From the IMG/VR virus record IMGVR_UViG_3300040786_000061: a stretch of DNA of 64,000 nucleotides; one strand, written 5' to 3'. This stretch comes from a virus. The notes below the pieces were generated by a model. That model saw only the letters and a program-made list of their open reading frames with translations, was not told the DNA's origin and ran no database searches. The position numbers and the translations under genes are program-made. This document shows positions 5,072 to 63,852 of the stretch, one piece after another (the stretch's first letter is position 1; each line of letters opens with the position of its first letter).

Positions 5072-5907
5072 ATGATAAAGAAATATTTAGAGTTTATTAA
5101 AGAAGCAAAATTTAACACTATTGGGAATGGGTTGAATCATTGTACAATGATGATTATATTAAAAATATAGTTAACAGATACATTGAGGATATACATCCTG
5201 ATATTAGAGTATCTAGTTGTGTAAATATTTTAGATGAAGAAGTACAAAATGATATTAAGTTTCAAATAGATAATTATCTCAAAAGTGGTATTATAGAAAA
5301 GAACCAGTTGTTTCTACATCAACTGAAACAGAAGATTTACTAGAGTCGGTAGACTCAGTAACAACAGCAGGTAAAGGAATATTCACATCCTTTTGAAATC
5401 ATTAACTGCACTTGGTAAAAAAGAAACGAAACCTGATTTTGAGAAGTGTCCAAACGACTTTCTTTATATTATCATTATCCTAACATAAACTCTGATGATG
5501 TTAAAACCGTATTTTCTAGATTTAAATCACTAACAACATATGTTGGTCTAATAGACTATGCTAAAACGAAGTTGATTTATACTTTGGTATAAAATGTGAT
5601 GGTACTTTTGAATATGGAGTTTCTTATGATAAACATTTACAGATTGGACAATTCAAATTAACATCGTCTGTAATAAAGTGGATAGTTCTATTAGAGTCTA
5701 AGTCTGCAACTCTCTTAAAAGGAAATGGTGAATTTAGGGTATAATGATATTTTATTATTAGGTAAGATTAAATCCGATATGATACAACTATTTCCTGGAT
5801 ATCATGAAAAAAGATCAAATGCTACAATTAATGATAGAGTGATAACCTTTGGGTATTTTGGATTAGGTAAGTGGGATAATGGTAAAATAGATGAAGATGA
5901 ATTTTAA
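5072..5907 (+). CDS. Hypothetical protein with CTS-like N-terminus (MIKKYLEFIKEA)
   Basis: ATG at 5072; continuation via fragments 5140-5343 and 5725-5907. Confidence 0.5.
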
Positions 5908-6024
5908 ATATAAAATCTAAATTTAGCACTTGGGTTTCTAAAGAAAATGGGGTAGTAAGGTACTAATAAGCGTTGAACCTAAATCATTTTGGGTATACGT
6001 TAATTTAAAATTAAAATAAAAAAC

Positions 6025-6346
6025 ATGAAATACGTTAATAAATTGACAAATACATCAAAGAGTCTACATCAAATATTGACTTCGCATTATCAAAGATAAA
6101 AGAACAATTTAGTGAAGAAGATGTCGCAGGTAAGTTTGATAATGAAATACTGGAATGGGTAGAAGATGGTTGGGAAGATGATTATGAGTCTGAATATGAC
6201 TGGTATATAGACCACAGTAATGAGGAGGCTCAGGATGTCGTTATTAGCGAACTTATTTCATGGTATGAAAGAGCATATAAAAGCAAGTATCAACAGATGA
6301 ACATTACGAATTATATTACATGCTAAAAGATTATTACAATCTATAA
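6025..6346 (+). CDS. Acidic hypothetical protein with CTS-like N-terminus (MKYVNK[F]DKYIKES)
   Basis: ATG at 6025; one-base loss in a T run is assumed; Asp/Glu/Trp-rich body (FDNEILEWVEDGWEDDYESEYDWY). Confidence 0.45.
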
Positions 6347-6376
6347 AACATTTATATTATTTTTTATATAAATGTA

Positions 6377-6577
6377 ATGAAACTACCAAAATCAAAACCA
6401 ATATACAATCATACTGTTTCTGCCTTAGGTAATATATTTGCGAGCAAAGAAGAATTAGACTCTTGTAAATCAAGGTTTGAATCTGATAAGAGGGACTCTA
6501 AAATAGATTATATTCTAAATGGTGTTGAGTATGATATTAAATCTACACTTGAAAAGATCCTGAATACATTAAATTAA
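6377..6577 (+). CDS. Small hypothetical protein with RDSKIDYIL motif
   Basis: Intact ORF in track. Confidence 0.5.
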   Translation: MKLPKSKPIYNHTVSALGNIFASKEELDSCKSRFESDKRDSKIDYILNGVEYDIKSTLEKILNTLN

Positions 6578-6888
6578 AAAATAAAGGAGTATATCCTTTA
6601 AGTAAACCTAGTGGTTTATTACTTTACATGGAAATGTATAATAATGATATTAAGGATACTGATAGTGGATATAAAATTAATAAAGATGACGATAATGGAT
6701 ATCGATATATCTAATAGTGGTTTGACCTCTAGTGTAGACTTCTTAGAGAAGTACTCCGCACTTCATTTAAGTAATGAACTCTATGAATCTAATTTCGATT
6801 CTGATAAAAAAAATAGTTTTGATATGTTTCCGATTGTTATGAATATTTCGGCAAGAACAATTGCTATGGATTTGATACCGGTTACTCT

Positions 6889-7092
6889 ATGAGTGAACCT
6901 GGTTATAATTCTGATGAAGAATTAGAAAAAATAAAAGGTGAGGTTAAGTCAATAAATCATAATAAGATAGACTCTATTTTACATGATGGGGAATATAAAG
7001 AGATGGATATAAAAGAACATTCTGATTATAAAGGTGAAGGACTTTTATACATAGACTATGTATACCCTGGAAATGTTTCTAAAAAATGCTAA
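6889..7092 (+). CDS. Small hypothetical protein with NHNKIDSIL motif variant
   Basis: Intact ORF in track. Confidence 0.45.
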   Translation: MSEPGYNSDEELEKIKGEVKSINHNKIDSILHDGEYKEMDIKEHSDYKGEGLLYIDYVYPGNVSKKC

Positions 7093-7193
7093 AAGGTAAA
7101 ATAATATGCTTGTACTTGGGATTTTTATAGGATGGTTAATATGGGCTAGAAAATAATTAAAAAAGAGGGTCATGTTAGTATTATATATACTTG

Positions 7194-7518
7194 ATGATTG
7201 TATATTTAATAAGTGCTGAAATAAGTGGGTCTAAGTTGCATAAAATAGGTTATACGAGGCGAAGTATTGATAAACGTATAAAAGAGTTCAAGACTGGTAA
7301 TGCATCAGAATTCTTCGTTATAGAATCTTTAAGTCTAAATGGTGTACTAAAATAGAATCAAGACTTCACAAGTTGTTTAAAATAAACTGGTTAGCGGAGA
7401 ATGGTTTAATTTAAATGAAGATGATATATTCTCATTCATCGAAACGTGTCAAACAATGCACGATAATTATGAACTTGTTTCTAAGTCTACCTACTACTTA
7501 GAAAGAGGTAAATTTTAA
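7194..7518 (+). CDS. GIY-YIG superfamily T5orf172/Mug113-like nuclease
   Basis: MIVYLISAEISGSKLHKIGYTRRSIDKRIKEFKTGN...IESRLH...GEWFNL. Confidence 0.75.
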
Positions 7519-11473: not shown

Positions 11474-14400
11474 TGAATTTCCACCACAACGGAAATCATC
11501 ATATTGACGACCTGTCTGTCCGGTCCAGTTACATATGTTGTTCCATCACAAAATGGGTAAGTAATTGTAGATATAGTACAAGTTACACAATTAGTAACAG
11601 TTTTAATACTTGATGCTGATATTAATTGACATCCGTTTTCAACTGGACCTATAATAAACCTATTAACTAAACCATTCGCATCAAAATAATCAACCCAACT
11701 ATTTATCTCTGGTTTATTTAATGTGTCACCTGCATTCCAAATTCCTTTATAATAAAAGATAAAAGTGGAAGTATTACACTTGATACCGATACAAGAGCAA
11801 ATGCCGAAGAGCAGTTAGTAGGATTATTAGTCTCACATATCTTATATTGTATAGTATAAGAGCCTGGTGATATTCCTATTGGTACATTAATACGACCTAA
11901 AGCATCTATATTTATAGCAATGTTCGTTGTTGATAATTGTTGTAGACTTACTCCATTAGTACCAATTCCTATTGTTACTTGAGCACCGTCTAATTTATCA
12001 CCAGTGATAACACTATTAGTATAATTTGCTACATTATTAAATACCGGATAGTTATCATTATTTGCAATAATTAACTTGTTCGGTAAAACTGGAGCAACCG
12101 TTATTGTTATTTTAACAGTAAAACTAACACTACCTGCTTCATTTTCCATAGTTATTATATAATCACCTGTTGATACTGAAACACCAATTCCTGATATTAT
12201 ACCTGTTGTAGGTGATAGCAGTATTCCTGGTGGTAGAGCAATATTAGAACTAAATACACCAATAGTTCCTAAAAATAATGGATTTAGTGATATGCTTGAT
12301 CCAATAGCTAGTGTGTTTGAGTTGTGTATGATAAATTAGTAGGTGCTATTATAACATTATTAGGTATATCACACTTAATATCATTTACTATTGTTGTCTC
12401 TACTGTATCTATTCCAATATTTATATTATCTAAAAATATAAAGTCAGACTTTGAATAATCTATAGATGGTGCAGTTGCTGTTATCGGATTTTGAATACCC
12501 TTATAGATATTATCTTCTGTAAAATATTTGAAGAATGGTATCATATCAACCTCATATAATTTTATATTATCTAATATCACCATCGATGAACTTGATCCCA
12601 TAAATCCATTTCCGCTAATACTCATCATCAAATCAGTTTTATTATAAAAATATTCATACTTTTTATTTGCAATATTTTGATATTCGCTACTGTTCTCAGG
12701 TGAGGTGTTCTGCGATACATCTAATCTAAAAGAATTTTCTGTAACAATATGGTCAATATTTTCAGATATTGGTAAATATGACATTTTATTATATACTTGT
12801 TCTATTGCAGTACCTACTATTTGATTACTTATATCATAGTTTAGATTAGATAGATGTAAAATAGGAAGTGATATATCAGGTCTATTATTTTTGCAATAAT
12901 ATTCTTATAAAAGAATTTTAAAGACCAACTTTCTAAATCAACTGTACTTGTATCATCTGCCACATATAGTGTCCAGTTTCCTGTTATAGTAGAAATCAAA
13001 TCCTCCCAGAAATATGTATTAGACGTGAATGACATAGTTCCCTGTCCTATTACTTTATCCATTCCATAAAGTCCTGAATAAGGTGGTGGTTGAACACCTA
13101 ACATGCTATATGGTGATATAGAATCACCAACTGTTTGATATGAATCATTAGTATTAAACTTAGTACCTACCAATCTAAATCCTATTCCTGTTCCATACTT
13201 TTTTGAGATTTATTACACTTCCATTAGGTGATACTAAATTTATAGTTATTTTAGAAAGATCTCCTATTAAATCAACACCTACTTCAATTTCTACAATATC
13301 TGCTAGAATTATATCACTACTTATATAACCGGAATCATTTGGATATAAATTCTGTATATAGTATTCTGATGTTACTTGGTTTGGTATTGGATATTTTGAA
13401 ATGTTCCATTAGTAGCCGGAATAGATTCTATTGTATAATAGTCTGAATTCTATGTATATAGTCTGTGTTATAGTTACTATGAGTAATTACATCAAACTCT
13501 ATAACAGAATATCTATCTTTGTCCATAGTAATATTGTTATTTAGAATAACACCTGCTGATGCACCAAGAGCATACAACTCATCACCAGTAACTCCTGAGT
13601 CTAAATAAGCCTGAGTGGTCTCTAAGTCATACACATTCAATGAAACTATTGAATCAGTTCGTAATAATTCAATATCACTTGGCTTATTATATGAATAGGT
13701 CCAACCAGTTTCATCAAGGTTATCAAAAGGCTCGTTAAAACTAGAATAATCACCTATAAAATCATTAAATAATTTATACTTTGTGCCAAGTCTATAAGAA
13801 TTAACATCTAAACTAAAACTATCTCTAAAGTATGAGTTGCTTGATAATACATCATAAGTAGGATAACCATAAAGATTATTTCTACTTATTGACTTCTTTG
13901 TAAGAAGGTCATAAGACTTAAATACTTTACCTATTGTAACTGCTCTAGTTTCATCATAATTAACATCCATCCAAGAGTTAAACCTAAATATGCTGGATGA
14001 TAGTGAATTATTACCAGACTTTATCTTAGATCTATTACTATCATAGAAGTTAAAGTTTTGTATAAGACCTGTTGCGAATATTTCTCTAAATTACCTATTA
14101 TAGATAATTTTGTGGTATCAGGACTTATGCTTGTTCCGGTTATATATAATAAATCAATCTCTATTTTAGTTACTCCTAAATCATTATCTACTTTTAAAAC
14201 CAAGAACACCATTATAATAATTGAGTATTCATAGTCTTCGTCGTTGAATGTTAAGTTTATATACTCACCCGGTAGGAATTTATAATTAATAAAGGATTGT
14301 TTTGAAATGTTAATACCACATTTCCTACCTTACAGCCATCAACAGGCATAAGTCCAATTATATAAAGTGATGCTCCATATCCAGACGCGAACTTACCACC

Positions 14401-15891
14401 GTTGTATATACCATCTATCCAGTATGTATCTTCCATTTCGGTTATTACTGGATACCCTCTGAAAAGTCCATAGTTCCAAACTCCTGAAAAGTACCCATTG
14501 AAGAATGCTCCTGATAACCAAATATTCTTAGTTACTTTGATTCTATGATTATCGGAATCTCTTTCGATTCTTCTATAAGGAAATGTTGTATTAATTTCTA
14601 TTTCTATCCAACTAATATCAGACGATTCATCACTTTTATTGATAACTCTATAATAATCTTTCAGAAGTTTTCGGTTATCATTTATATCGATTGCTACTAT
14701 ATTACCAACAGAGACCTTATCTCCTTTAGTAAAGAATGATGTAGATTCTAAAGAACCTTTAATCTTTACTCTCAAGTAATATCTGAATATGTTTGTATTG
14801 ATTGATAAATATCATCAAAGTCTTTAAAGTTTTCATCACCTCTCCATCCATTGTTCCAAACACCGTTTTCCCATACACCTTCTTAAATACTCCATTTCCG
14901 AATTTTGATGTCAGACTACTAGTTCCGCTGTTTGATGCACCACTATTAAAACAGTTGAAAATGAAAATATTGCATCACTAGGTAAACTAACTAAGCCATC
15001 AGTGGTAAGTTTATTATTATACTCATGATAACCACCATATATGTTAATATCTGATATTGTTGAATAAAAATTACCACTTGAATTCGAGCCTGATATGATT
15101 AAATAGTTTTTCTCATTATTTGTATTTATACCTTTTAAACTAAACTTTTATAACCTAAAGTAGACTGTGTAAATGTATTTATTTTTTCCCAAGTTGAACT
15201 ATCTAGTGAACTTGATACATATATAGACACTTGGTCTTCTGAATTACCTTCCAATTTAGTGTAATTTAGTTCTAAGTTATATACGTCATATTCCATTAAC
15301 CTAGCAATATAGTTTGTCTCATTTATTACATTTGTACCAGATCCTAAATTAGAAAATGTAGGTGATAATATAGAAGTGTTTGAATAGTGCCAGCTATAGT
15401 TGTTGTTATTATCATAAGACCATCCATTGGGTTGTGATTCTGCTGAGGATAATCTATCTAGATATCTAAACTCAGATTGTCCATTTATAAAAAAGTCAAT
15501 CTCTTTTAAATTAGAATAAGAAATAATGCTATCTATAAAGCCACCTGTAGCTCCATATGATACTATATTATTAGAAGATCCGGTTGTTACTGGTGATATA
15601 TATGTATAGAATTCAACACCACCAACACCGTCTACATCTCTAGTATTAGATATTGCACTTTTCTTAAATGGTGCACTAAAACCTATCTCTAAAGTTGCGC
15701 CAATTGGATTTGAGCCAGTTATGCCAGTTATAATTTGATAGTTTTACCTTGTCGATAAGATATAGGATCATTTGCTACATTATAGACGTATCTAATATTA
15801 GATACCCAATTCTACTAATCCCTGCTCCTCTAAAGTCACCTAATGCACTATCTTCCCAAGCGTGAAGTTTATTCTTATCTACAAATCCCAT
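11024..15891 (-). CDS. Giant multidomain virion protein (about 1600 aa): WxxG repeats, proprotein-convertase P-like domain, putative Ig (He_PIG-like) domain, Flavobacterium-type adhesin repeat, C-terminal Hint domain
   Basis: ATG 15891 (MGFVDKNKLHAWED) follows a TTAATATATA motif. Fragments 14257-14775, 13428-13970, 12841-13173 (ITGNWTLYVADD...SWSLKF), 12308-12784, 11718-12149 and 11164-11379 are collinear. A single reading frame is inferred across indels. Confidence 0.6.
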
Positions 15892-15895
15892 TTAT

Positions 15896-15905
15896 TATAT
15901 ATTAA
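15896..15905 (-). promoter_or_regulatory. TTAATATATA putative late promoter
   Basis: Exact motif 4 nt upstream of ATG 15891. Confidence 0.45.
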
Positions 15906-15910
15906 TTTTA

Positions 15911-24899: not shown

Positions 24900-25520
24900 T
24901 TATTTCTGAATTTCCACCATATGGCATGAAAATGGAATTACATTTTTTGATATCATATCATATATTTTGGTAGCATTTTCTAAATCTATTTTTACATTAC
25001 TATTAGCAATTTTAACCACAGTATATCCCTTTTCTAAATAACTAGGTCCTGTTCCATTAACAGACTGTTTAGTTGCCCAAGTTATATTATAACTTCTATT
25101 ATTTTCATCTTTACAAAATAGCACTATTTCTCTTACACGATTTACATCAAGAAGACTTATCGAATATCTGCTAGGTTTTAACTTCAATGTTCCTCTCAGG
25201 TATGCTGCTGTAGTCACAACTTCAATCGATTCTACGTCTAATATATTGTTTTTTACTTCTATTTTAAAATTAACTACCGACTTTTTATAATCAAATGATG
25301 TTCTAGTTATTCCTGCAAAGTATATTTTCAATTTTGTTATTGCATCTTGGTACATTTCAAATGCTTCATCAAAATCATACTCTCCTGTATATTTACCGGT
25401 TACCATATTATCATCAACTACAATGTTAAATCCATTATCACTAAAATCATAGAAATAGTCTTTTAATTCCATTTTATATTTTGTACTCTCTGATTCGTTA
25501 AACTTTTTTAAATGTTTCAT
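24900..25520 (-). CDS. CTS-tagged hypothetical protein, paralogue A (MKHLKKFNES)
   Basis: Intact 206-aa ORF. Confidence 0.75.
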   Translation of the reverse strand: MKHLKKFNESESTKYKMELKDYFYDFSDNGFNIVVDDNMVTGKYTGEYDFDEAFEMYQDAITKLKIYFAGITRTSFDYKKSVVNFKIEVKNNILDVESIEVVTTAAYLRGTLKLKPSRYSISLLDVNRVREIVLFCKDENNRSYNITWATKQSVNGTGPSYLEKGYTVVKIANSNVKIDLENATKIYDMISKNVIPFSCHMVEIQK

Positions 25521-25560
25521 ATATTTACTAATGTATTTGGATTAATTTCAGCAACTTGCT

Positions 25561-26109
25561 TTAATGTTTGATTATTAACATAATCATCATTATAAGGTCT
25601 ATACTCTCCGTTAAGTATATTTTCAAAACTTTTTCAACATTAACTAGGTCTATTTTACCTATACGGCTACCTATTCTGAAACTATCATAATTCCAACCAA
25701 CAGATACTTTTTTATTATTTAAAATATCTATACAATATAATGTTAAATAACCAGGTGAATAATTATAGTTAACTACATTTAGTATTAATTTAGTATTAGA
25801 GGCCGATAATGTAACCTCAATTGAATTTTCATTAGGCTTATGCTGTACTTCAATAGTGAATGATGTTGTAGTTTTTTGTATTATAGAAAGAAGTTTTGCA
25901 ATACCATAGTAATGTTTTAATTTTGTAACTACCTCTAAAAAAGTATCTAATATATCAACAGAGTCTATATTACCTTTATATTTACCCTTTATTACATTAT
26001 CTTCTATATCAATAGTAAACCCATTGTCGCTAAAATCATAGAAATAGTCTTTTAATTCCATTTCATATTTTGTACTCTCTGATTCGTTAAACTTTTTTAA
26101 ATGTTTCAT
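25561..26109 (-). CDS. CTS-tagged hypothetical protein, paralogue B (MKHLKKFNES)
   Basis: Likely start 26109 rather than 26169; first 80 nt nearly identical to paralogue A. Confidence 0.7.
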   Translation of the reverse strand: MKHLKKFNESESTKYEMELKDYFYDFSDNGFTIDIEDNVIKGKYKGNIDSVDILDTFLEVVTKLKHYYGIAKLLSIIQKTTTSFTIEVQHKPNENSIEVTLSASNTKLILNVVNYNYSPGYLTLYCIDILNNKKVSVGWNYDSFRIGSRIGKIDLVNVEKVLKIYLTESIDLIMMIMLIIKH

Positions 26110-26117
26110 ATATATAC

Positions 26118-26127
26118 TATATATTAA
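26118..26127 (-). promoter_or_regulatory. TTAATATATA putative late promoter
   Basis: Exact motif 8 nt upstream of ATG 26109. Confidence 0.45.
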
Positions 26128-26465
26128 AATATTTTCCTTAAATTTGTATAAAATAAAACATATGTACACAGACTCAATTTTAAACGATTACTTAGAAAGT
26201 TCACAGATTGACCAATCACAACTATCCGATTTTCTAATAATGTTAGAAGACTATAAAACCAGTTACCTGGACAAGAAGCCTTGTTTGTAGAGTTATTTGA
26301 TGATGAGAGCTCCACTATTAATGTTTTACCTTTCTAATAATTAAAAAATAATAAAATGGTTTTATCCAGTGGAGTTCATAAAGAATATACAAACTTTGAT
26401 TCAGAGTTGCGTAATGTTAAATTAAAGATTATCACAGAAGGATTTAAATTCTCTGTAAAAGTAAT

Positions 26466-26918: not shown

Positions 26919-27674
26919 CAAGATTAGTTAGCCTTCTAATATACAAGATAAATAACTTGTATTTGTTTTATCAGAATCCTCAAACTCTTGTAAAGTATTA
27001 TATGCTTTATTTTGAGAATCTAATTTAACTATTTTATAAATTTTAAATTATAAATAGACATACATTGTTCTATTGATTCTGCCATTTGTGAAAATATCTC
27101 ATCGTTGCCGTTGTTAGATAATGTAAATTTAAGTAAACTATATTTATCATATTGAATTATATTAGTAGTAACTCCTAAATCCTTTAGTTGTAAAAGATAT
27201 CCATATTAATATTACTTGCTAAAATTGGTATAGCATTTCTTTTTAATTCAATTATAATTAATTTACCTGAATCATTATCGTTAATTTTATCTATACTATT
27301 TGTTTTTGTGTGCATACCACCTCTCATAGAGCAGGAAGTTATGTTAAATCCATTAATTTTATCTATTAATTTAACCTCATTTTTATCTCAGAAAATTTTA
27401 TTCTTTGTGAGTGTGAGTGTAATTTACTTAAATCTACATCATCCTTTTTTAAAGTAATAGAAATTTTAAAAACATTGTGGATATTTAAGTGTTGTAAAAT
27501 TTTCTTATTTTTTCCAACAAATACTTCTTTAATTTTCACATCTAAAAAATCTAAATTTGATAAAATTTCATATATTTGTTTTTAACATCTTCGTTAGACA
27601 TATTTTCAAATAATTTGTAAGTAAATAAATATTTCATAACTTATATATTATTTTTTATTTATATAATAATTCCT

Positions 27675-30814: not shown

Positions 30815-32607
30815 ATGATAAGAAAATACAATAACTTCAAGGAAGATAGAATACTAGAGTCTATAAATGAATCTTATTTATATTTCACTAACAATTTTAG
30901 AGATATACTTAAAAGATGAAAAAATAAAATTTCATCAGATATATTAGATGCAGAGAGAACTGATGTAAAACCAGATATGACATTTATAGATTTATCTAGT
31001 AAAGAAGGACATATCATTTAGCCAAATAAAAAAAGGTATTTCTATAATAAAGAAGTGGGCAGATGAACAAGGATATAGTGAGGATGATGTAAAACACATT
31101 TATCAAGATATAGATAATGGTCGTTTTAATTTAAGTGCAGTTGGAATTTCAGGGATGATCTCTTATCTAAATCTAGGAATGATGTAAAGATTGGTAAGTT
31201 AATTAACTCTCTGTTCCCTGGTAAATATACCCCACAAGAAGTCGAAGAGTTTGTTAGTAGATTTAAGAGGTATGCAAGTGGTGAGAATGATAACAAATTT
31301 AAAATTGTTGAGGGTGATGAAATAAAAGCTCCTTATCTGTATAGTAACTATGCTGAGGATACAGAACACTTGGAAATTCATGTATGAGAAGTTCCAGCTC
31401 TCAAGTTTTTGATATCTACACAGAAAATAAAGATGTGTGTAGGTTGCTTGTTTTAAGTGATCCTGATGATTTAGTTGTAGGTAGAGTCTTAATATGGAAA
31501 ATTTCTAGCATCAGTGATGAAGAACTTAAAGACGCTGAGTATTTTATGGACCGTATTTATACTATTGACGATTCAATTATGAACGACTTTAAAGACTATG
31601 CAACTACTAACGGTTGGATAAGAAAGATCGAATACTGGGTATAGTGATACAAAGACACTTACTTATAATGATAAGGTATACAGCGGTGTTGATATGGAAG
31701 TAAAATTAGAAAGTTATAAAGATATATAGATGAATTTCCTTATGGATACTTTTAAGAGGCTAAATGTATCAACAGGTGTTTTATATAATGATGATAAAGA
31801 GTAACCGATTGTTATCAATTAGAACAAACTGATGGAGGTTATCAAAGATCTGATGGCGTTTGGTCGGAGTATGAAGATGAATATATAGATGAAGATGAAT
31901 CAGTTTACTCAGAACCGCTCGGTACCTATATATATAGAGATGGTTCTATCGAAGTTGAGACAGGCTCATCTTCAAGAAGAGGATATTATCCAGAAGACTA
32001 TGATAGTATAGTTTATGATGAATATAGAGAGAGTATATACATGAAGATGATGCATCATATTGTGAATATGATGACCAAAGCTTCTATGATAATGACTCTG
32101 TTGAATGTATAACAAGATTTAGTAATATTCGACTATGATAGTGAAAACTTTTCTAGTAATAGTAATAATAATAGAATCTAAATATATGCAATGTTATGAT
32201 TATTTAGATGATAACGGTTTAGAAGATTACTATTTTAATAGATATATTAGGTTCTGGAAATACTGAATCTTATCGTACTTACTACTTTAAAGAGTTTGAA
32301 GTTAAAGTTCTTAAAACTAAATTAGGGAACTACACAAAGTTGATTGTGATATATTAGATATAAAAAAATGTTCCTGAATTTGATAAAGAGGGAAAACCTA
32401 ATATGTTTTTGAGTGATGAATTTGCATATAATTCTAGTATAGATATTGATGAAATTATGAAAAGTGTAAAGAGAAAATGAATTACTATAAATCTGTATTA
32501 AGTGGTAATCAGACTAGACTTAATTTCGAGGATGAGGATTCATTTAAAGAAAAGTCGAAGAAATGTATAAATATTTCTCGGAAGATATGATGAATTGGAA
32601 AACATTT
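30815..32607 (+). CDS. CTS-tagged protein (MIRKYNNFKEDRILESINES) with an SCM..GRxLxW..MDRIY domain and an acidic C-terminal region
   Basis: GNSCMRSSSSQVFDIY...LLVL...GRVLIW...FMDRIYT (31384-31644); paralogous to 60218-61542. Confidence 0.55.
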
Positions 32608-33719: not shown

Positions 33720-34072
33720 TCAACAAAATCCACTCTTTTATTAAAGTTAGATTCAAAATAGACATATGGTAGTTCATTTAATTTATAATTATTTAATTGT
33801 ATATAAAATCATCATATTCATAGTATATATCAACATAATCCATTGTATAAATATAATCCTTTACATCACTTATACTGAATATACTCATTCCTAAATTTAG
33901 TCCAATTTTATATAAAAATCATAATTATCAAAACCATCGGTTTCTTGTTCAAATGGTAATATTCTAAATCCTTTATCTTTTAGTTCAATGGTAATACCTT
34001 TTATATCTCTTATTAACTTATTAAAGTTATTTGGATCAAAGTCGTTATCTTCAAATGTTTTATATACTTCAT
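33720..34072 (-). CDS. CTS-tagged hypothetical protein (MKYIK[T]FED...IKGITIELKDKGF)
   Basis: ATG 34072 after TTTTATATATAG; one A missing in a homopolymer. Confidence 0.5.
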
Positions 34073-38593: not shown

Positions 38594-40010
38594 ATGAAGT
38601 GGTTAAGAAATTTCGAATTATTTAAAGAATCAAAGACATATTCTGATAAAAGCCTAATAACGGAGATATGCGTAAGTATGTTATTAATAAACAATGATTT
38701 CCTGTCTAATATTTTAGACAAAGGTATACGTGGTAGATATAATGAAAATTCACAGGTGTTTATAACTGACTTAAAAGTTTATTGCTTGCTAAAAATAGAC
38801 TAAATCTTGGTAAATTTGATGGTGATAAGTGTATATTAGATACTGAGATATCGAAAGTTAATATTTTATTTGATGAAGTTAAATTTGACATCGAAAAGAT
38901 TGGAAGATTCTAGTTGATTCTAGAAATATAGCAAGGTCTATAATAGATAAAATAATACCCGATGATAAATTAGACTCCGATAGAGTTAGAAATATATTCT
39001 GGATAGCAAATAATAAAACAGATGAGCATAAAGAAGATATAGTTATCGAACTAAATGATGGTAAACAATATTCATTCTTTTGAATAAAATTTATCAAATC
39101 AAAAGTGCATCCTTTAATACTTTTGCAGAAGACTTAATTGGCGAAGATTTACAATTACTTTCGGTGAAGAGTACTTACCAAAATGGGACAAGTTAACTCA
39201 TGAATGGGTTAGAATTTTATACGAAAATGCAAATAAGAATATACAAGCACATATAGAAAAGTTCATAGACCCTAAAAGAATAGAAACCATAGGCTATTTC
39301 GATTATTTTGATATAAGACATAGCGATCCAAGGTTTAAGCACTTAGGTGAGTTTATTAAAGACTTTAATAAAACATTCTTAAATTTCCGATTTGATGTTA
39401 GAGATTTGGAAGAACAGAGATATTTGTTTTATGGATACCGAAAGAGTGTATGAAGAATGGATGGAAAGAAAAGTAACTATTTTAAATTCTAGAATATTAG
39501 AAAACCTTTAACAAACTCTTTGAAGGCAAATTTCAAAGAAGATATTAAAAAATTAGATGATGGTTTTAAACTGGCAGAAGGTACAGTTAAAATGAAACTC
39601 TTTAAAACACTTGTTGAGAAAATGGGTTCTGTTGAAACACCAGTATATTATATTGGGGAAATGGTAGTAACTTTAATATGTTACCAAGCAGAGATTTCTT
39701 TAGAAATTACTATGATGATTTAACTATTAAGTTTGATTATCACGTAAACTTTCAAGTTAGTGAAGAAGAAGAAAATAATGATTTTAATATAAAGATAAAG
39801 TTAGAATTAGATGAAGTCAAACTAATAGACTTGAATATTGCTATTAAATTTACAAGTGAGATGTCAGGTCGCTTATCTGCTAAATATAAGTTTGATATAT
39901 CACCTGAATTTAGTTATTTGATAGCTAAAAAACAATTAGAAGAACCTAAAGATGAAGAATCTAAAGAAATTACTAAAAAGATTCTGATGACGATAATGAT
40001 AATAATGACC
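38594..40010 (+). CDS. Large CTS-tagged hypothetical protein (MKWLRNFELFKES)
   Basis: Joins fragments 38594-38803, 39520-39723 and 39678-40076. Confidence 0.5.
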
Positions 40011-40053: not shown

Positions 40054-40689
40054 ATGAAATATTTAAAAAAATATAACAATTTCAAAGAGTCAATTCTAAT
40101 TGATTTAAGTTTTCAAAATGTCGGTGAGTTAATGGAATCGTTGAGTGTTTGGTATGACTCTCTACTATCTTCTATTAATGCGGAAGAGGTTGATATATAT
40201 GACACATTCAAATTACCTAAAGAGGATTTCAAAGATAAACTTGATTTAGATTTTTTAGAAGACAATGTTGAGTTTATAAATTCATTATCCAGTATTGCAC
40301 TTAAGAAGTCTACTGTAAGTAATAGCGATGATTATGAAACTTTCTTGAATAAACCTTGTAGATTTATGTTTATATTTAACATTGAGAGTAATGAACTTGA
40401 AAACCCGGCGTATTTAATATTCCAGGTTTGGCACGAATCATTGAATAAGTGGGATGACGTTAAATTATATAAGATAAATGATAACGTGCAGAAGTTCTAT
40501 GATACCCTAATAAGTAAAACCGTAGAACTTGTAGATGGTGATGAGAAGTACATTTATACTATAACTGGTAGTAAAGAGTGGGTGCTTCAAAACATTGAGA
40601 ATGAGAATGATATTTACAAGAAAATGTTTAGAAAAGATGAGTTTCAAGATTTATTATCAAGTAGAAAGATAAAAGTTAACATAATATAG
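40054..40689 (+). CDS. CTS-tagged hypothetical protein (MKYLKKYNNFKES)
   Basis: Intact 211-aa ORF. Confidence 0.75.
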   Translation: MKYLKKYNNFKESILIDLSFQNVGELMESLSVWYDSLLSSINAEEVDIYDTFKLPKEDFKDKLDLDFLEDNVEFINSLSSIALKKSTVSNSDDYETFLNKPCRFMFIFNIESNELENPAYLIFQVWHESLNKWDDVKLYKINDNVQKFYDTLISKTVELVDGDEKYIYTITGSKEWVLQNIENENDIYKKMFRKDEFQDLLSSRKIKVNII

Positions 40690-41586: not shown

Positions 41587-42045
41587 ATGAAACATATTAG
41601 AACATGAGGATGATCAATGGGATAATGAGGATGATTTTGATACATCTATCGTTCACCCAATTACTGAAAATACTTGTTATGTAGCTCATCAAGGAATATC
41701 TGATATAATAGTTATTTGACGGTAAAGGTAGACTTAGAATTCTATCCTGAAACCGGCAACCTTATTAGAAAGAAAGACTGGGTTAATATAACAAAGTATT
41801 ATAACAGAATCTTAATTAATTTGTTGTTATGATTCTAGTAATGTTTATATATGAAGAAGGCAAATGGGTTAATCCAGTTTATCAAACATATACACATCAT
41901 TTAGAATATTAGAAAATAGACTATTAGGTTTAGAAGTGATATTTGTATGAATATAGTAGTAGCGCAGATGCTGTTGTGACCGCTAATAAAATAAAGGATC
42001 AATATAAATAATACTGATATTTATTGGCTATTGAATCCTCATTTT
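41587..42045 (+). CDS. Hypothetical protein with CTS-like start (MKHIRT[F]ED)
   Basis: ATG 41587; frameshifted. Confidence 0.35.
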
Positions 42046-42706: not shown

Positions 42707-43115
42707 ATGAAACACATTACTTTATTTGAAGATTTCGAATATATAAAAGAAGATACTTCTGCTACAGGAGGACCACCTAGTAGTGGAATGGGTGCTGTTG
42801 TTAGCGCAAACCCTTCCAGTCTAGCAGGATCTACAATTGGTACAAATTGGGTTCCAGTGGAGGTACAATTGGATCCGGTGATATTTCAGTTCCTTATAAT
42901 CCAGGTGGTGCAGATAGAATGATACAGAAGATACCTGTTATGGGTTATAATCATGGTGCAAGAACTGGTAAAAAATCAAGAGAAAAAGTTGATATGAAGG
43001 CACTTAGATTAGCACTTGCTGGAAAAAAAACAAGATTCAACAAAAGAACCTAAGTCTAAAAAGTGATGAGTTTTGATGATTTCGCAAAATCTGATATAAA
43101 TAAAATTAAAAATAA
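42707..43115 (+). CDS. CTS-tagged Gly/Ser-rich, basic-tailed protein (MKHITLFEDFEYIKED)
   Basis: Joins 42707-42922 and 42847-43053; ends KVMSFDDFAKSDINKIKK*. Confidence 0.55.
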
Positions 43116-43116: not shown

Positions 43117-43560
43117 ATGAAACATAAAAAAAATTTAACGAAGAGTTTGATCCAATGGGTAGTTGGAATCCTAAACATCCAAGTAATTTAAAAAAGAAAG
43201 GAATATTCAGAAATAGTATTAGATATAAAGAAGATATTTTAGAAAACCCACTTGATGGTAATTTTATGACTCCACTTGATGGGGACTTTATTGTTAAGTA
43301 TAATAAAAAAAATGATAGAACAATAATAACTATCGAAAATCCAAATGTTAGAGGAAATTCACCTGGTTTAAGTTATGGTGAGTTCTTATGGAAAGAAATA
43401 AAAGATGCCGTTCTTAATATAGTTGAATATGCGAATAAGGAAAAACTTTCCGTTACATTATATAATGTAGAAGATTCCTACTCTTTCCAAACGGTGTAGT
43501 TGATATTAATGATATTGGTAATCTTAATAGATTTAATAAACTAAAAATAATTATAAAATA
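43117..43560 (+). CDS. CTS-tagged hypothetical protein (MKH[I]KKFNEEF)
   Basis: ATG 43117 upstream of fragment 43155-43499. Confidence 0.5.
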
Positions 43561-43567: not shown

Positions 43568-43950
43568 ATGAAACACATAAAACTATTTGAGAACTTCGAA
43601 AAGAAAGCCTTCGTTTTAAGTTTCATGAGGATAAATTAAGAACCGATATCGATGGTATATTTGTTGAGTTATTAGACAAAGGATTTAGATATTCGGTATA
43701 TTTTAAGGAATACTTAGAAATTAATATAGAACATAGTGTAAATGATTGGTTCTTTTGATGAAATATATGAAGAATTAATGATGTTAATAGATTATATGAA
43801 TATAAAATTTAAAAATGACATTGATTTTAAATATAACTATGAAGAACATCTTGAATTAAGAAAATTGAAGATAGATGATAAACAAAAGTAATGATGAAAG
43901 AAGATAAACATGTTCTTATGAGTTACTTTGAGTTAGACATAAAATTAAAA
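43568..43950 (+). CDS. CTS-tagged hypothetical protein (MKHIKLFENFE...IDGIFVELLDKGF)
   Basis: ATG 43568; frameshifted. Confidence 0.5.
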
Positions 43951-43956: not shown

Positions 43957-44194
43957 ATGAAACATATAAAAAAATTTGAAGGATTCTCTATGCAAAAGAT
44001 AATTGTGATAGATGTAATAATCCAACTAACGGAGTTACTACAATGGGTGTGTTTAACCAAGATGTTATCTGTTCGGATTGCAAAGAAGCAGAAAAGATGA
44101 CCCGGACTATGAACTTGCGAGAAACACAGAGTCCGAAGAAGTAAAAAAGGCAATTACAACTATCCAGGTATATACCTAATTATAAACCAATTTA
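43957..44194 (+). CDS. CTS-tagged small zinc-finger protein (MKHIKKFEGF; CDRC...CSDC)
   Basis: With one A restored: DNCDRCNNPTNGVTTMGVFNQDVICSDCKEAEKDDPDY...KGNYNYPG. Confidence 0.6.
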
Positions 44195-50710: not shown

Positions 50711-51035
50711 ATGAAATACTTAAAAAATATGAAGGTTTTGAAGGCTTTGATGAATGGTTTAATGAAAAGATAATAATAAACGTAAAGTAATCGAAGATGT
50801 TAATGAGATAGTTTTAGATCTATCTGATTATAGAATAATACCGATAATTAAACATTATGATAATAGATTATCAGTTATTCTACAAACTGATCCAGAACAA
50901 TTAAAAATATCGAGAAGTGGATATGCACATGTTTATAATATTTGGGGTCGAGGTGAAACCACATTTACATATAAAAATATAAAAGATAGAGTTGAACATT
51001 TAATTGCATATATGCATTATAAGGAAATGAATTAA
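50711..51035 (+). CDS. CTS-tagged hypothetical protein (MKYLK[K]YEGFEGFDEWFNE...IEDVNEIVLDLSD)
   Basis: ATG 50711 hidden inside track ORF 50599-50790; one A missing. Confidence 0.45.
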
Positions 51036-51224
51036 CTGAAATTATAATAAATGATAATAAATATCTTAGTAAGCATAACTTTAGTTTCGATGATAATAGT
51101 TTTGAAAAAGAGAAAAGTTAGAAAAATAGGTAGCGAGGAAAACATAGAATTGTTTATGTTTAGATTAGAGTTCAAAATAAATTACTAGAAATATTAAAAA
51201 AAGTCAAAATTAGAGATATATTAT

Positions 51225-56054: not shown

Positions 56055-57720
56055 GTGAAATATATAAAGACATTTGAATCATATAAATCGAAAAGAGATG
56101 AACCAGTTAACGAAGAATTGTTTGGTGGTATATTGAACTTCTAAAAAATATGTGGGGTAAGGCGGTTGATGAAATTAAAAAAGTTAGGTGAAAAGCCTAC
56201 CATGGAACAACTAGACACTTGATAGAAGAAAATGTTTTAATCGAAATAGCAACAGTTACTTATTCAAAATCGTTATGGATGATTTTAAAAGAAACCAGAA
56301 GCCACCGTAGATGAATGCTTGGTCTAGTTGGTAGCATAATTGATCCTAATACAGGAGCACTTGGTAAACAAGCACTGTCACCTTTATATGATTCACTTAT
56401 GAAGGTGTTTGGTAAAAATTTAGGACCATTGAATACTATAAAATATTATTTTTCAACCGCAAGAAATAAAGCAATAGTTGATTATAATATGCAGGAGGAC
56501 CTATCGCTGATGCTAAGACTCTTTATCCCAATGTAGATCCCTAAAATAATTAAAACACTTGAAAATAAAACACATCTACCAGATCTTAAATTGTTATTAA
56601 CCCGTTAGCAGGAGAAGGAAATGGAGCAAAAAAGAAAGGATGTAACGGTTATGGATAGAAGGTACTTTATTACCTAGACTTTTAAAGTATATACAAGACA
56701 TAAAAAGGAAGAGGTTGATAAATATTTAAAAAATAGCAGGAGTTGAAACAGAATCAACCACTACTGAGGATTCAGTGGAGTTATTTTGGGCGGATAAGAG
56801 TATAGAACTATCACCTGATGATAACAAGGCTACTATAAAATATCAAAATCTAATAGTAGTAAAATACTTGTGGATGATTTTAAAATATCAGGTGAGGTTA
56901 AAAGGATCACTGGTAAAACTAACAGATGTTATTAGAGGTGGTCAAAAGTTCCGAATTTGAAGAAACTCATATGAAACTGGTTCCATCAAAAAATAATGGT
57001 TGGTGGTGTTGAGGTAGAAACTCATACAATTTACATCAGAAGAAAATAATGAAGAGGAAAAAACGAAAAATTGAGTACATAAAAAATGATACTAATAAAA
57101 TGGGTACCATATCGAAGGTAGTAGACGCAATGGATGATCCGGAAAATTAGCATCAATTACTAATATATTAGAGAAAAGCCGGTTTAAATAATAAAAAAGA
57201 AAATTTAGAAAGAAGAAGAATTGAGAAAATATTCACTCAAATAAATAAGATAGGATCTAAAGGAAGAGATAATGAGTTAGAATATAAGAAGTATGTTGAT
57301 GATATTGTAGCAAGGGGTGATTACGACAACTTACTACAATGTTTATATTACTATTATGATATTGATACACAAAATTTTAAAACAGTCGAAGATGTAAAAA
57401 AGAAAACTTGGAAAGACATTATTTTAGATCTAAAAGTTCATTTGAAACGAAACTTAAGAAGTTATATATTTCTAAAGGTGTATATCAAACATCATTTGAT
57501 ATATTCAAGGATGATAACACTTTTTAGGTCAGTTGAAAGAATTAACCACTTATACAGATGAGACTAAATATTATATTAAAAGTAGACAATATGCTAAGAT
57601 AACAGGTACTCGAAAGTCTTTATAGAAGTAACAAAGGTAGGTGCATCAAGTTCCGTTATTATAGCAGAAAATGATCCAGCATTCCCAGAAGATCAGAATT
57701 TATATAATAGATATGTATTA
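56055..57720 (+). CDS. Large CTS-tagged hypothetical protein(s) (MKYIKTFESYK...VNEEL); heavily frameshifted, may be more than one gene
   Basis: GTG 56055; fragments 56315-56536 and 56775-56960. Confidence 0.35.
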
Positions 57721-57753: not shown

Positions 57754-58129
57754 TTATAAGTTATCATTAAAATGCCTCAAACAAATAACCTGATCATCAT
57801 CATCTTCCTCTTCCTCAATTTCGAAGTTAAATTCTTTATTAGGAAATTTTATTTTAACCTTATTAATACTATTATCAATATCTAAATAAAATTCCTTACT
57901 TATTTCATGAAATTCTATACGCTCTTCTATTGTATCAAGACTATTGCTATTTTCCCAACTTCCATTATTATTACTAATACCAGGTAGATTAATAATAATT
58001 TGTATATACTCATCATCTCCTATTTCTATCAAAGCACCTTTATCAATAAAATCAATAAAGCAATTTTTAATATTCTATTCCTTGTAAGTCAGATTCTATA
58101 TCCTCATTATATTTTCTTAAATGTTTCAT
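57754..58129 (-). CDS. CTS-tagged hypothetical protein (MKHLRKYNED...FIDFIDKG)
   Basis: ATG 58129 upstream of fragment 57754-58032. Confidence 0.5.
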
Positions 58130-61542: not shown

Positions 61543-61624
61543 AGAATGTTTTTTTTACAAAGATATGTATATCTTCTTTAATAGTTAGTATAATTATGTT
61601 AATTTATCTTTTTTTTATTAGTGA

Positions 61625-62480
61625 TTAAATTCCCAATGATTCTAGAATATCGTTTCTAACTGAACATTGTGTAATTTTCATAATTCGTTCAGTCTCATTC
61701 TTTATGATATGAGAGTCTTGTTTGTTGAAAATTCTAAGATAAGTTTGAAATCCCAAAATGCATCAATATAGAAATCTAATTCTTTAGGAATAGTATTAGT
61801 AGATTTAGAATATGAGAAAGTAAATTTCTCTGGTCAAGGATAATTCTATTTTATTTTTACCACTGCACTTCTAAGTGAGTTTTAAATGCATCTAACTTTC
61901 TGTGGTTAATATCTGGTACATCACCATCACCAAGAATAATACCTCTTAACTTAGAGAACAAAACCCTGTGTCCTACAATAGAGTTCATAGATTCAATTTG
62001 TTCGTCAAGGTCTCTCCATTTAACTTATCAGTTGCATCCTCAGTTGCTTTGTAACTCCTTTCAAGTGTTTTTTTATTAAACTTGTATTAGTTGAACCAAT
62101 AACATAACAACTAGCATTTTCAGAATAAAGTCCTACATTAAAACTAAGTCGTCTTGATTTATCAGATGAATTCAAAATATAAAATGATTTATAAAACTCA
62201 ACACCACCTACTTCCACTTTATCAGAAATAAGTTGTAGGTATTGTTTACCACCAATTATATCAATTTTATATTGACTAATTTTAAAGTTTTTCTCAATCA
62301 AGTCAATTTTACTTTTAGATATTTAGCAATATCAAATATCTCATATCTGTTAGAAACATTTGCAACTTTGATAACTCTGTTACCATATTTAGTTACTACT
62401 TGATCTCCTTCTTTAGTGATTGATATTCTGTCAATTACTGAAAATAAAACTTCTTTGTTGTATGGTAGAAAATTTCTCAT
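61625..62480 (-). CDS. Possible DUF932/DUF945-like protein; ends VRNDILESLGI*
   Basis: FYILNSSDKSRRLSFNVGLY resembles the NSxDGS...AGxF motif; joins 62298-62480 and 62020-62301. Confidence 0.4.
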
Positions 62481-62505
62481 ATTTTAGATTTAGATTTATA
62501 TTCTA

Positions 62506-62513
62506 CAAAGATA
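62506..62513 (-). promoter_or_regulatory. Bacteroidota-type -7 element TATCTTTG
   Basis: Intergenic, 25 nt upstream of ATG 62480. Confidence 0.5.
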
Positions 62514-62541
62514 AGGATAATATTTAAATGAAAAGGCATAT

Positions 62542-62551
62542 TTAATATATA
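62542..62551 (+). promoter_or_regulatory. TTAATATATA putative late promoter
   Basis: Exact motif 4 nt upstream of ATG 62556. Confidence 0.45.
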
Positions 62552-62555
62552 CTTT

Positions 62556-63852
62556 ATGAAATATTTAAAAGTGTTTAAAAGTTATATAGTTAATGAGGAA
62601 GTTTCAAAAAATGATCCTATTCAAGAGTTAAATTTTAATGAAAAATAGGTATAGTTTTATTAGGAACACCTGGTGTTGGTAAGTCAACATTTGCGGAGAA
62701 CTTTGTAAAACATAGACGTAGAGATATAAAGATATTTTCTACTGATGATGTTTCTTTAACAAGAACTAAGGATCCAAATTTATATAAACAAGGATCATCT
62801 GAATTGAATTTAAAAAAATTAGAATCTTATATAAATGTTGGAAAAGGCTCATTTATATATGACACAACTGGAGTGCAAAAAGTTAATATATCAAATGTTA
62901 CTAAACACGCACATAGTAATGGATATCAGGTTATTTTCATACATCTAATAGGATCTCTTGATATGTCACTAAGACAAAATATACAAAGAAATAGAAATGT
63001 ACCCGAAGATTTTATAAAACATGCATATGATGAGCAATTTAAGAATATGAAGTACTTTTCTGAATTAAATCCAGAGAGTTACTATATCGTATATAATATA
63101 GATGGTAAGTATAAGTTTATGAAATATGAAAATGGTAAGATATTAAAACGAAAAGTCGACAAGTACGTTCCATTAAAAGAAAGTATTGAAAATAAAGAAG
63201 ATGACTTTGATATCGAAGACATTATGTTATATGTAATTGATGCAATTGATGCTGGATATAAAGTTAGTTTTAATTCAATAAATGGAATGACTTTAAGACC
63301 TGAAGATATTTACCAAAGACCCCAGCCTTCACATACTTCAAACTTACTGATAAAGTATACGATAAGATTAGAAGTAAATTTAGTATAAGAATAGCCGGTA
63401 AAGGTAATAGTGGTATAGATTTCACAAAATTTGAAGAGGTTATTAACATTATGGCAGTTTCTACCCAACATTTAAAATTAAAAGTTGGATATTAAGTGAT
63501 TTTAAAATTAATACTATAGAACCTGGTCGAGATAATCCTAATGGTGATATAAGTTTTAGTAGTATAGAGTTTATATACACTAAGCCAGATGTGCAAGTTA
63601 AAGAAGAAGTAGCATTAAATCAGATTAAAAAAAAAATAATAAGAGCATTTGAAAATGAAGGAATATATATAGAAAAAAAATAGTATAGTATACGATGATT
63701 ATATTCAAATTCAAGAGTATGATACTTTTAGTAGAGAAGACTCAATAATATCGAGAATAGACGATGTATGCAATCAACTTGGATCAAGTGAATGGGAATG
63801 GCATAACGGAATAAATATGATAAACATATTTTTTAAGAGTATAGGTATTTAG
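62556..63852 (+). CDS. CTS-tagged P-loop kinase (zeta toxin/AAA_33-like) with extra C-terminal domain(s); 3' end uncertain
   Basis: MKYLKVFKSYIVNEE; GTPGVGKST...STDDV...FIYDTTG...GYQVIFIHL...RN..RNRNVPE. Confidence 0.7.

Follow-up and report, generated by a model that had tools for sequence, protein, structure and literature searches.

A common N-terminal leader on unrelated proteins of a Mahaphage-type huge phage, a candidate capsid-targeting propeptide

Why should more than a dozen dissimilar proteins of one virus begin with nearly the same residues? In the 64,000-nucleotide stretch of viral DNA analysed here (IMG/VR record IMGVR_UViG_3300040786_000061; hereafter the window), a sequence-only reading had listed about 19 such starts, likened them to the capsid-targeting sequence (CTS) of phage T4 and proposed that their bearers are packaged and injected. 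We asked whether these starts form a genuine common leader and what that leader may do.

The window is part of a Mahaphage-type huge phage that uses the standard code. Its GC content is 27%, and it contains many indels; an alternative genetic code was considered as the cause of its broken reading frames and rejected, homopolymer indels being to blame. Its kinship to genomes of 634 to 735 kb is drawn from protein matches: 51 proteins of LR745206.1 have counterparts in the window, arranged in syntenic blocks and 27-71% identical. The genomes of 634, 636, 642 and 735 kb are Mahaphage, with hosts predicted to be Bacteroidetes (PMC7162821; Al-Shayeb et al. 2020). LR745206.1 (916 genes) is polished and is the closest complete genome to the window, and a second polished relative, L085, was used to check the window's reading frames.

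A common leader on more than 12 window genes is confirmed. It occurs in two forms, type 1 being M-K-(Y/H)-(L/I)-(K/R)-x-(F/Y) and type 2 M-x-K-K-Y-x-x-F-I-x-E. Among the 19 sites first listed, 10 are intact type 1, 5 are type 1 once a base is restored and 2 belong to the second form, while 2 are weak. The candidate sites are as follows.

5072..5107, plus strand: type-2 (T4-like) leader MIKKYLEFIKEA; the LR745206.1 orthologue g290120 begins MIIKKYIKFIKEN.
6025..6066, plus: type-1 leader with a 1-nt indel, MKYVNK(F)DKYIKES; this restoration is supported by the W01 orthologue g291084, which begins MKYLRKYNES.
25491..25520, minus: type-1 leader MKHLKKFNES, intact, of a 206-aa gene (24900-25520).
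26080..26109, minus: type-1 leader MKHLKKFNES, intact, gene 25561-26109; AATATATA box upstream.
27602..27637, minus: type-1 leader MKYLFTYKLFEN, PSSM score 21, absent from the first list.
30815..30874, plus: type-2-like leader MIRKYNNFKEDRILESINES (MIRKYNNFKED); orthologue g418202 begins MISRYNKFRENLLLESIINES.
33649, minus: weak candidate MKKFSNI, low score; residues 12-16 of the W01 orthologue read KVNEE.
34040..34072, minus: type-1 leader with one base restored, MKY(I)KTFED, score 19 after a 1-nt insertion; relatives give no confirmation.
38594..38632, plus: type-1 leader MKWLRNFELFKES, gene cut by frameshifts; the counterparts are L085 2591-4051 (486 aa) and g557002 (458 aa, leader identical).
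40054..40092, plus: type-1 leader MKYLKKYNNFKES of an intact 211-aa gene (40054-40689) with >1200 homologues; all of 35 sequences compared keep M1, K5, Y7 and E12, and the AlphaFold model is poor (pLDDT 56).
41587..41615, plus: possible type-1 leader with one base restored, MKHIRT(F)ED; the gene is absent from L085 and relatives give no confirmation.
42707..42754, plus: type-1 leader MKHITLFEDFEYIKED, intact, on a small protein bearing a copy of the predicted maturation-site segment of the capsid protein (MCP; BLASTP).
43117..43146, plus: type-1 leader with one base lost, MKH(I)KKFNEE; polished L085 bears out the restoration, reading MKHIKRFNEE at 6463.
43568..43600, plus: type-1 leader MKHIKLFENFE; L085 has MKHLKLFENFE at 6916.
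43957..43986, plus: type-1 leader MKHIKKFEGF of a small, zinc-finger-like protein rich in Cys (L085 7315, 81 aa); the W01 orthologue has a degenerate leader, MDNLETFESF.
50711..50745, plus: type-1 leader with one base restored, MKYLK(K)YEGF; gene absent from L085.
51257: weak candidate, since its FKKFSDF is internal, within MAEKIAGFKKFSDF, in both the window and L085.
56055..56117, plus: type-1 leader with a GTG, not ATG, start, VKYIKTFESYKSKRDEPVNEE; orthologue g536880 begins MKYVRTFESFRNKKTEPVNEE.
58100..58129, minus: type-1 leader MKHLRKYNED, intact.
62556..62600, plus: type-1 leader MKYLKVFKSYIVNEE, intact, followed as far as about 63388 by a P-loop kinase-like body (weak Pfam 6PF2K match, 62804-63388).

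Chance does not account for these starts. In the window, 11 intact starts fit type 1 where about 0.5 would be expected, and some 5 more fit after restoring one base. At a PSSM score of at least 10, the window has 11 ATG sites, against a mean of 0.49 and a maximum of 3 in 100 second-order Markov surrogates. The leader is also nearly confined to N-termini: in LR745206.1 its profile scores at least 10 in about 116 of 916 genes as against 2 of 2497 internal Met, and the consensus pattern occurs in 74 genes at the first ATG and in 8 more at a near-N-terminal ATG, with true internal matches at 2 of 3665 internal Met. Permuting the N-termini of this genome leaves 1.2-1.6 matches. Type 2 adds about 20 genes in LR745206.1, and complete relatives carry more than 100 leader genes per genome, so that the original figure of about 19 proteins proved far too low. 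We found no published account of this leader in the literature.

A shared start could in principle reflect a translation optimum, either AT-rich, unstructured first codons or a favoured nascent peptide, on near-leaderless mRNAs in a host clade that does without Shine-Dalgarno sequences. The codons of the leader are indeed the most AT-rich ones, no Shine-Dalgarno sequence was seen, and the AATATATA box frequently stops 4-5 nt short of the ATG. Yet the same spacing is found in 46 untagged genes, and the order of residues is fixed (1.2 matches after permutation against 74-100). Synonymous codons, in turn, are unconstrained: K2 is AAA:AAG 65:24 at leaders, where genome-wide usage predicts 65.7:23.3, and Leu4 is written with five different codons. 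Synonymous leader codons therefore follow genome-wide usage, and selection acts on the peptide. Moreover, the MCP and portal, presumably highly expressed, have no leader, and the 735-kb relative, similar in base composition, has a different one. We regard this explanation as very unlikely. The type of leader follows the genome: for the 211-aa protein, type 1 is shared by the window and three relatives, and the orthologue in the 735-kb phage (LR756501.1) has type 2. In that phage, type 2 is present in 37-45 genes and type 1 in few, with 7 loose matches (about 2 expected) and 1 strict DNA-pattern hit.

The proteins behind the leader are for the most part unrelated, as had been claimed. BLAST sorts the 134 tagged proteins into 117 clusters, and 108 of these have a single member, which is not the signature of paralogues. 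Among the bodies are two NUDIX proteins, a methyltransferase and a Zn-protease-like protein, whose domains begin at residue 25 or later. These observations support the view of the leader as a portable N-terminal module. One fast-diverging multigene family, or a 5' cassette spread by gene conversion, would explain the shared start by common descent without any address role. Two observations fit it: 14 of the 134 tagged proteins have a second module in common, and the tandem paralogues at 25520 and 26109 are identical at 86 of their first 90 nt and divergent beyond. The preponderance of singleton clusters and the presence of the leader on unrelated Pfam folds and on an MCP-derived segment argue against it, and leader codons differ freely among genes; therefore, there is no general DNA cassette. 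This explanation, too, seems to us very unlikely.

If the leader is processed as in T4, a gp21-like protease is expected, and one was found in the nearest complete relatives, adjoining a Gp23-family capsid protein. The evidence for protease and MCP comes from the genomes of these relatives: a 707-aa protease-scaffold fusion (phrog_207, 4e-30), which scores 16.8-20.1 bits against Pfam S77, below the cut-off of 27, and an MCP of the Gp23 family (PF07068, 1.8e-26), whose N-terminus KKWSPVLE matches NKWKPLLE of T4. The relatives also have a T4-type portal (phrog_213, 2e-59).

The end of the leader resembles a cut site, again in agreement with the sequence-only reading. A hydrophobic-x-Glu motif lies within the first 13 residues of 78% of leaders and 22% of untagged proteins, and it is followed by S/N/E/A/G. 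P3 is taken by F, I, L, Y or V and P2 often by Asn, and Ser stands at P1' in 35% of leaders against a background of 7%. The motif recurs at the predicted propeptide junction of the MCP, H-(S/Q)-(I/M)-(N/H)-E|N, which is kept in four genomes; comparable sites, I-N-E and L-N-E, precede the conserved MCP core in PTm1 and Lak-B5. It recurs as well in the protease-scaffold, where hydrophobic-x-E-[SAGN] sites number 23 against 3.5 expected (P 5e-12), in part from about 12 tandem repeat units, and in the scaffold of PTm1 hydrophobic-N-E-[SAGN] occurs 7 times where 0.39 would be expected. Leaders are absent from PTm1, the nearest cultured relative. The protein at 42707 joins the two kinds of site: its leader and body match MCP residues 36-84 (BLASTP E 1e-9), with FEDFECIKE|D aligned to YAEFHSINE|N, leader included. 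Its W01 orthologue has another leader, which again ends in hydrophobic-x-E directly before a conserved TSATGG.

This evidence bears on cleavage, not on retention, and the leader might accordingly be a head-protease propeptide without cargo loading, for example one for timed activation or removal late in infection, or one on assembly helpers that exit the head. In T4, most core fragments do exit the head once cleaved (PMC9026906). The T4 protease, however, works within the prohead (PMC9026906); its substrates therefore need prior entry. Cleavage alone would also leave the conserved M-K-Y-L-K upstream of the cut site without a role, and we consider it unlikely.

A different possibility is that some other phage-encoded partner reads the leader, as a tag for docking or sorting, and that the likeness of the leader to the T4 CTS is convergent. 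Such a partner might be a chaperone, a modifying enzyme, an intracellular compartment or a degradation machine. What is demonstrated is the shared leader alone, and the tagged set is very large for head cargo. It is also acidic, with an average net charge per residue of -0.045 against -0.011; such acidity sits badly with packed DNA and is an awkward fact that counts against capsid cargo. On the other hand, tagged genes are dispersed across the whole genome, with no cluster at one enzyme gene, and the end of the leader has the motif of the MCP propeptide junction and of the scaffold sites. We hold another partner to be rather unlikely. Close relatives differ in their tagged genes, as the window and L085 do, and T4 internal-protein genes are likewise gained and lost between close relatives. 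A promoter-like AATATATA box is enriched at tagged genes, lying upstream of 46% of them and of 16% of untagged genes; it also precedes large virion-like genes, the portal gene among them.

We thus favour, as somewhat probable, the reading of the leader as a capsid-targeting propeptide of the T4 kind, much expanded in one clade of huge phages with predicted Bacteroidetes hosts. From the sequences we infer docking, cleavage, packaging and injection. The amphipathic N-terminus of 9-13 residues, whether type 1 or type 2, would dock a new protein on the prohead scaffolding core, which here would be the repeat-rich part of the protease-scaffold fusion. The gp21-type protease would then cut the leader off at its final hydrophobic-x-Glu-(S/N/E/A/G) motif, just behind the Glu, and the mature protein would remain in the head, probably to exit with the DNA at infection. 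That the clade packs some hundred mostly orphan proteins into the capsid through one tag (about 13% of genes, with NUDIX, methyltransferase and kinase members) and injects them with the DNA is a more doubtful proposition that we advance only tentatively. If true, no pre-made effector payload known from a bacterial virus would come near it in size. Head cargo amounting to about 13% of genes is far beyond any studied phage, which counts against the capsid-targeting reading itself.

Should the leader direct proteins to the capsid, those that uncultivated huge phages inject could be listed by a simple sequence rule, a task for which purified virions are now required. Each genome would yield more than 100 candidates for a part in host takeover or anti-defence, almost all without known domains. 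Huge genomes would then serve in part to carry a large and fast-changing stock of proteins made in advance for the opening minutes of infection, and, given a cultured relative, the leader could become a portable packaging tag for engineering. If its partner is instead another one, the leader still marks an undescribed sorting system that takes in about a tenth of the proteome.

The closest known counterpart is the CTS of T4 internal proteins IPI, IPII and IPIII, MKTYQEFIAE (Mullaney and Black 1996, reviewed in PMC9026906 and PMC3012670; sequence in 10.1101/2021.01.19.427310), in which positions 4 and 7 serve targeting and positions 8 and 10 processing (PMC9026906). Both are N-terminal, about 10 residues long and carried by otherwise unrelated proteins; both begin with M-K, have an aromatic pair and end in hydrophobic-x-Glu. 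The head genes are of gp20/gp21/gp23 type (here in the relatives), and tagged genes differ between close relatives in both systems. The proposed likeness holds best for type 2, MIKKYxxFIxE, in which Tyr, Phe, Ile and Glu are spaced as T4 residues 4, 7, 8 and 10, the residues shown by experiment to matter; the aromatic pair of type-2 genes in LR745206.1 and LR756501.1 reads Y/F-x-x-F/Y. It is looser for type 1, the dominant form, whose aromatic positions Y/H3 and F/Y7 are four apart rather than three as in the T4 CTS, and whose Phe is itself P3 of the predicted cut site, P2 often being Asn. In contrast to the three or four tagged genes of T4, each genome here has more than 100; acidic proteins predominate among those tagged, protease and scaffold form a single fusion, and the system is described here from sequence.

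The giant phages phiKZ, 201phi2-1 and SPN3US, which have many head proteins (about 50), offer a second comparison. Their head and ejection proteins mature through a protease, gp175/gp245, that cuts after S/A/G-x-E (PMC5694885, PMC7411985, PMC10052503); here too we find a diverged gp21-like protease and a short Glu motif, and their packaged proteins lose N-terminal propeptides. Those propeptides, however, are long and varied, and a single shared leader is not described for them (PMC5694885, PMC7411985, PMC10052503). Their P3 is small, whereas here it is hydrophobic, and they form a separate phage lineage with other hosts. The present leaders differ in sequence as well from the candidate N-terminal tags MIKLIDILKE, MNRYDIALGKKPPP and MKIEAxxRL of uncultured T4-type and jumbo phages.

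The window has a GC content of 26-35% over its 64 kb, and its ORFs are highly fragmented whichever code is applied (table 11, table 4, or TAG=Q). The alternative codes (table 4 and TAG=Q) were rejected, since the ORFs stayed unmended. Many long homopolymer runs and frame breaks are evident, and we attribute the fragmentation to homopolymer indels; the polished relative reads in table 11. A search of the window for tRNA genes found none. Proteins encoded in the window match those of the largest curated phage genomes: LR745206.1 (634,780 bp, the closest complete relative), LR756502.1, LR756504.1, and LR756501.1 (735 kb). Al-Shayeb et al. 2020 (PMC7162821) assign these genomes to Mahaphage, a clade whose predicted hosts are Bacteroidetes. 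The 211-aa product of 40054-40689 is 66% identical to its LR745206.1 counterpart. The latter genome uses the standard code, with ORFs of at least 100 aa covering 86% of its length, and 51 of its proteins map onto the window in syntenic blocks. In addition, a polished 14-kb JGI contig (L085) aligns with 36.0-53.7 kb of the window at 85-94% nucleotide identity. Taken together, the Mahaphage matches, the standard code, the synteny, and the identity to L085 establish the window as part of a Mahaphage-type phage, assembled with many errors.

The sequence-only reading listed 19 sites in the window at which unrelated proteins begin with a common tag. Most of the list stood: 10 leaders are intact, 5 need a one-base repair, and 2 are of a second form, while 33649 and 51257 are weak, the motif at 51257 lying off the N-terminus. 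A strict pattern likewise recovers 10 intact leaders in the window. The leader at 56055 is intact with a GTG start codon, and a further leader, at 27637 (-), was missing from the list. L085 confirms the leaders at 38594, 40054, 42707, 43117, 43568, and 43957, and LR745206.1 orthologs confirm those at 5072, 6025, 30815, 38594, 40054, and 56055. Restoring single bases is reasonable given an error-rich assembly, and the Ile restored at 43117 is present in L085. When ATG sites were scanned with a profile built from LR745206.1, 11 in the window scored at least 10 vs 0.49 (maximum, 3) in 100 Markov surrogates. Comparison of the window with L085 shows gains and losses of tagged genes. L085 lacks two genes of the window (40700-41560 and 50716-51174), one lysozyme/chitinase-like and the other the tagged gene at 50711, and an extra tagged gene (159 aa) at L085 4051-4530 is absent from the window.

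Complete genomes reveal the scale of the set. Among 916 ORF-genes called in LR745206.1, the first ATG gives a strict match in 74 and a near-N-terminal ATG does so in another 8, vs 2/3665 internal Met residues; 116 genes reach a profile score of at least 10, vs 2/2497 internal Met residues. The consensus of this main form (type 1) is M-K-(Y/H)-(L/I)-(K/R)-x-(F/Y), after which comes N-E-S, E-x-(F/Y), or K-(I/L)-F-E-S. Another 18 to 21 genes begin with a second form, M-x(1-4)-(Y/F)-x-x-(F/Y)-(I/L/V/F)-x-E. At the DNA level, the strict pattern occurs 66 times in LR745206.1, 72 in LR756502.1, 34 in LR756504.1, and 14 in LR756500.1 (reversed control, 0 to 3), and it marks zero real starts in Lak-B5 and the cultured phage PTm1. 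Lak-B5 has no type 1 leaders. The capsid protein led to the cultured relatives PTm1, PAU, pT24, MaF61, and MA9V; PTm1, searched whole, has no such leaders, which rules out its virion data as a stand-in. In IMG/VR, 21 stretches match a single exact codon version of MKYLKxFNE, nearly all with several tagged genes per 10 kb. The tagged 211-aa protein has 1221 metagenomic homologs; a related-loci search of viral contigs with it gave no match.

A start shared by so many genes could reflect a translation optimum, or the tagged genes could be diverging members of one family. Both explanations are disfavored. Permuting residues 2 to 12 of LR745206.1 N-termini leaves 1.2 strict matches vs 74 at first ATGs, and synonymous codon use in the leader equals genome-wide use position by position. 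With their first 14 residues cut off, 134 tagged proteins form 117 BLAST clusters (108 singletons), which bears out the proposal of a shared N-terminus on otherwise dissimilar proteins. Moreover, the 735-kb phage starts 37 to 45 genes with M-(I/V/L)-K-x-(Y/F)-x-x-(F/Y)-(I/L/V/F)-(N/K)-E-(A/S), a type 2 (T4-like) leader, vs 1.3 expected. These patterns argue for a peptide signal rather than an RNA signal or a paralog signature, and the leader is very likely functional.

A Pfam and PHROGs scan of 30 tagged LR745206.1 proteins, plus about 10 encoded by the window or L085, returned four domain matches (two NUDIX, a methyltransferase, and a Zn-protease-like domain) and no known virion protein. All four domains begin past residue 25; therefore, the leader is an add-on. 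Across 35 homologs of the 211-aa protein, M1, K5, Y7, and E12 are invariant. An AlphaFold2 model built with these homologs (pLDDT 56; below 35 at residues 1 to 31) was too poor for a fold search, and its low confidence at residues 1 to 31 is compatible with a free leader without being evidence for one. The tandem genes at 25520 and 26109 are identical at 86/90 nt across the leader region and divergent beyond. In these paralogs (window 24900-26109, -), the conserved first 90 nt comprise the leader and a ELKDYFYDFSDNGF module, as though this 5' module had undergone gene conversion or recombination.

Leader type varies by genome. The 211-aa protein begins with MKYLKKYNNFKES in the window and with MRYIKSYKTFKES, MKYLKKYKKYKES, and MKYLKRFKLFEKS in three relatives; its ortholog in the 735-kb phage begins with MRIKGYNKFVKED. 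Type 1 leaders are few in that phage (7 loose matches vs about 2 expected; one strict DNA-pattern copy). Such tracking is as expected if a genome-specific partner reads the leader. The dialects include MIKKYxxFINE(A/S) in LR756501.1 (735 kb) and MKYIKEY in LR756500.1 (462 kb); the capsid protein of the 462-kb genome itself begins with MIKLINEA.

In LR745206.1, a AATATATA box lies upstream of 46% of tagged vs 16% of untagged genes, its end separated from the ATG by 4-5 nt or by some 20 nt; about 180/304 copies fall within 60 nt upstream of genes. Examples in the window are as follows:

62536-62555, AATATATA box
26110-26135, AATATATA box

The portal gene has the box upstream as well, as do a head-decoration-like gene and several virion-like genes of very large size; the gene for a 987-aa protein has it too. 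Frameshifted orthologs of this protein and of another very large LR745206.1 protein (1591 aa), both probably virion proteins, occupy window 12395-21658 (-). A box 4-5 nt before the start codon would yield leaderless or nearly leaderless mRNAs. Its distribution suggests co-expression of tagged and virion genes, and the box may be a late promoter.

Three head genes of LR745206.1 lie within 10 kb of each other:

Portal, LR745206.1 (phrog_213, 2e-59)
Head-maturation protease, 707 aa, LR745206.1 198546-200669 (L035 8546-10669; phrog_207, 4e-30)
Major capsid protein (MCP), Gp23 family, LR745206.1 (PF07068, 1.8e-26; weak match to T4 gp23 structures)

The gp21-like protease anticipated elsewhere in the genome is thus present in the relative, although Pfam Peptidase_S77 scores 16.8-20.1 bits, under its cut-off. 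It is fused to a scaffold-like tail that combines about 12 tandem 14-residue repeats (AYSEYLAENLDKNI) with a long acidic tract. This fusion recurs in PTm1 as ORF-300, where the annotation reads prohead core scaffolding protein and protease.

A hydrophobic-x-Glu motif occurs by residue 13 in 78% of leaders vs 22% of untagged proteins. The middle residue is usually Asn or Phe, and the residue after Glu is Ser in 35% (background, 7%), followed by Asn, Glu, Ala, and Gly. In the MCPs of 4/4 large genomes, the last such motif before the conserved core is H-(S/Q)-(I/M)-(N/H)-E, then N; PTm1 and Lak-B5 MCPs have similar I-N-E or L-N-E sites upstream of the core. The protease-scaffold contains 23 hydrophobic-x-E-[SAGN] sites vs 3.5 expected (P = 5e-12), with tandem repeats supplying part of the excess, and four N-E-S sites vs 0.21 expected; in the PTm1 scaffold, hydrophobic-N-E-[SAGN] occurs seven times vs 0.39 expected. 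The 42707 protein (L085 6036), leader included, aligns with MCP residues 36-84 (E = 1e-9), pairing FEDFECIKE/DTSATGG..GMGAVVSANPSSLAGSTIG with YAEFHSINE/NAYANAS..GMGAVVAAQPASLAGTTI, the slash marking the predicted cut. Its LR745206.1 ortholog has a different, longer leader, again with hydrophobic-x-E immediately before TSATGG. Small proteins copy this MCP segment (GMGAVV.A.P.SLAG.TI) behind a short leader, and might be capsid N-arm mimics or a minor head protein:

Window 42707-43110, small MCP-segment protein
L085 6036-6461, small MCP-segment protein
LR745206.1 from 555284 (-), small MCP-segment protein

Overall, we lean slightly toward the leader being a T4-type capsid-targeting propeptide, the evidence being convergent but indirect. 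Against this reading, about 13% of genes would become cargo, the average tagged protein is acidic, the MCP maturation site is itself predicted, and the head genes are known from relatives only. Less probably, the leader may dock onto another partner, or may be cleaved without the protein being retained in the head. Putative injection and anti-defense roles lie a further step beyond capsid targeting.

The capsid-targeting sequence of T4 is a well-known element, with similar leaders in T-even relatives (PMC9026906); our literature search (leader sequences, Mahaphage, capsid targeting in huge phages) found no description of these leaders or of an expanded set. What is notable here is the scale of the leader and the alignment tying it to the predicted MCP maturation site. 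In T4, gp21 cleaves after L/I-x-E and scaffold proteins are cut to many fragments; the targeting sequence of IPIII is its first ten residues, with residues 4 and 7 important for targeting and 8 and 10 for processing (PMC9026906). Compared with this sequence, MKTYQEFIAE (10.1101/2021.01.19.427310), type 1 leaders space their aromatic residues differently, a further point against capsid targeting, whereas type 2 leaders space Tyr, Phe, Ile, and Glu alike.
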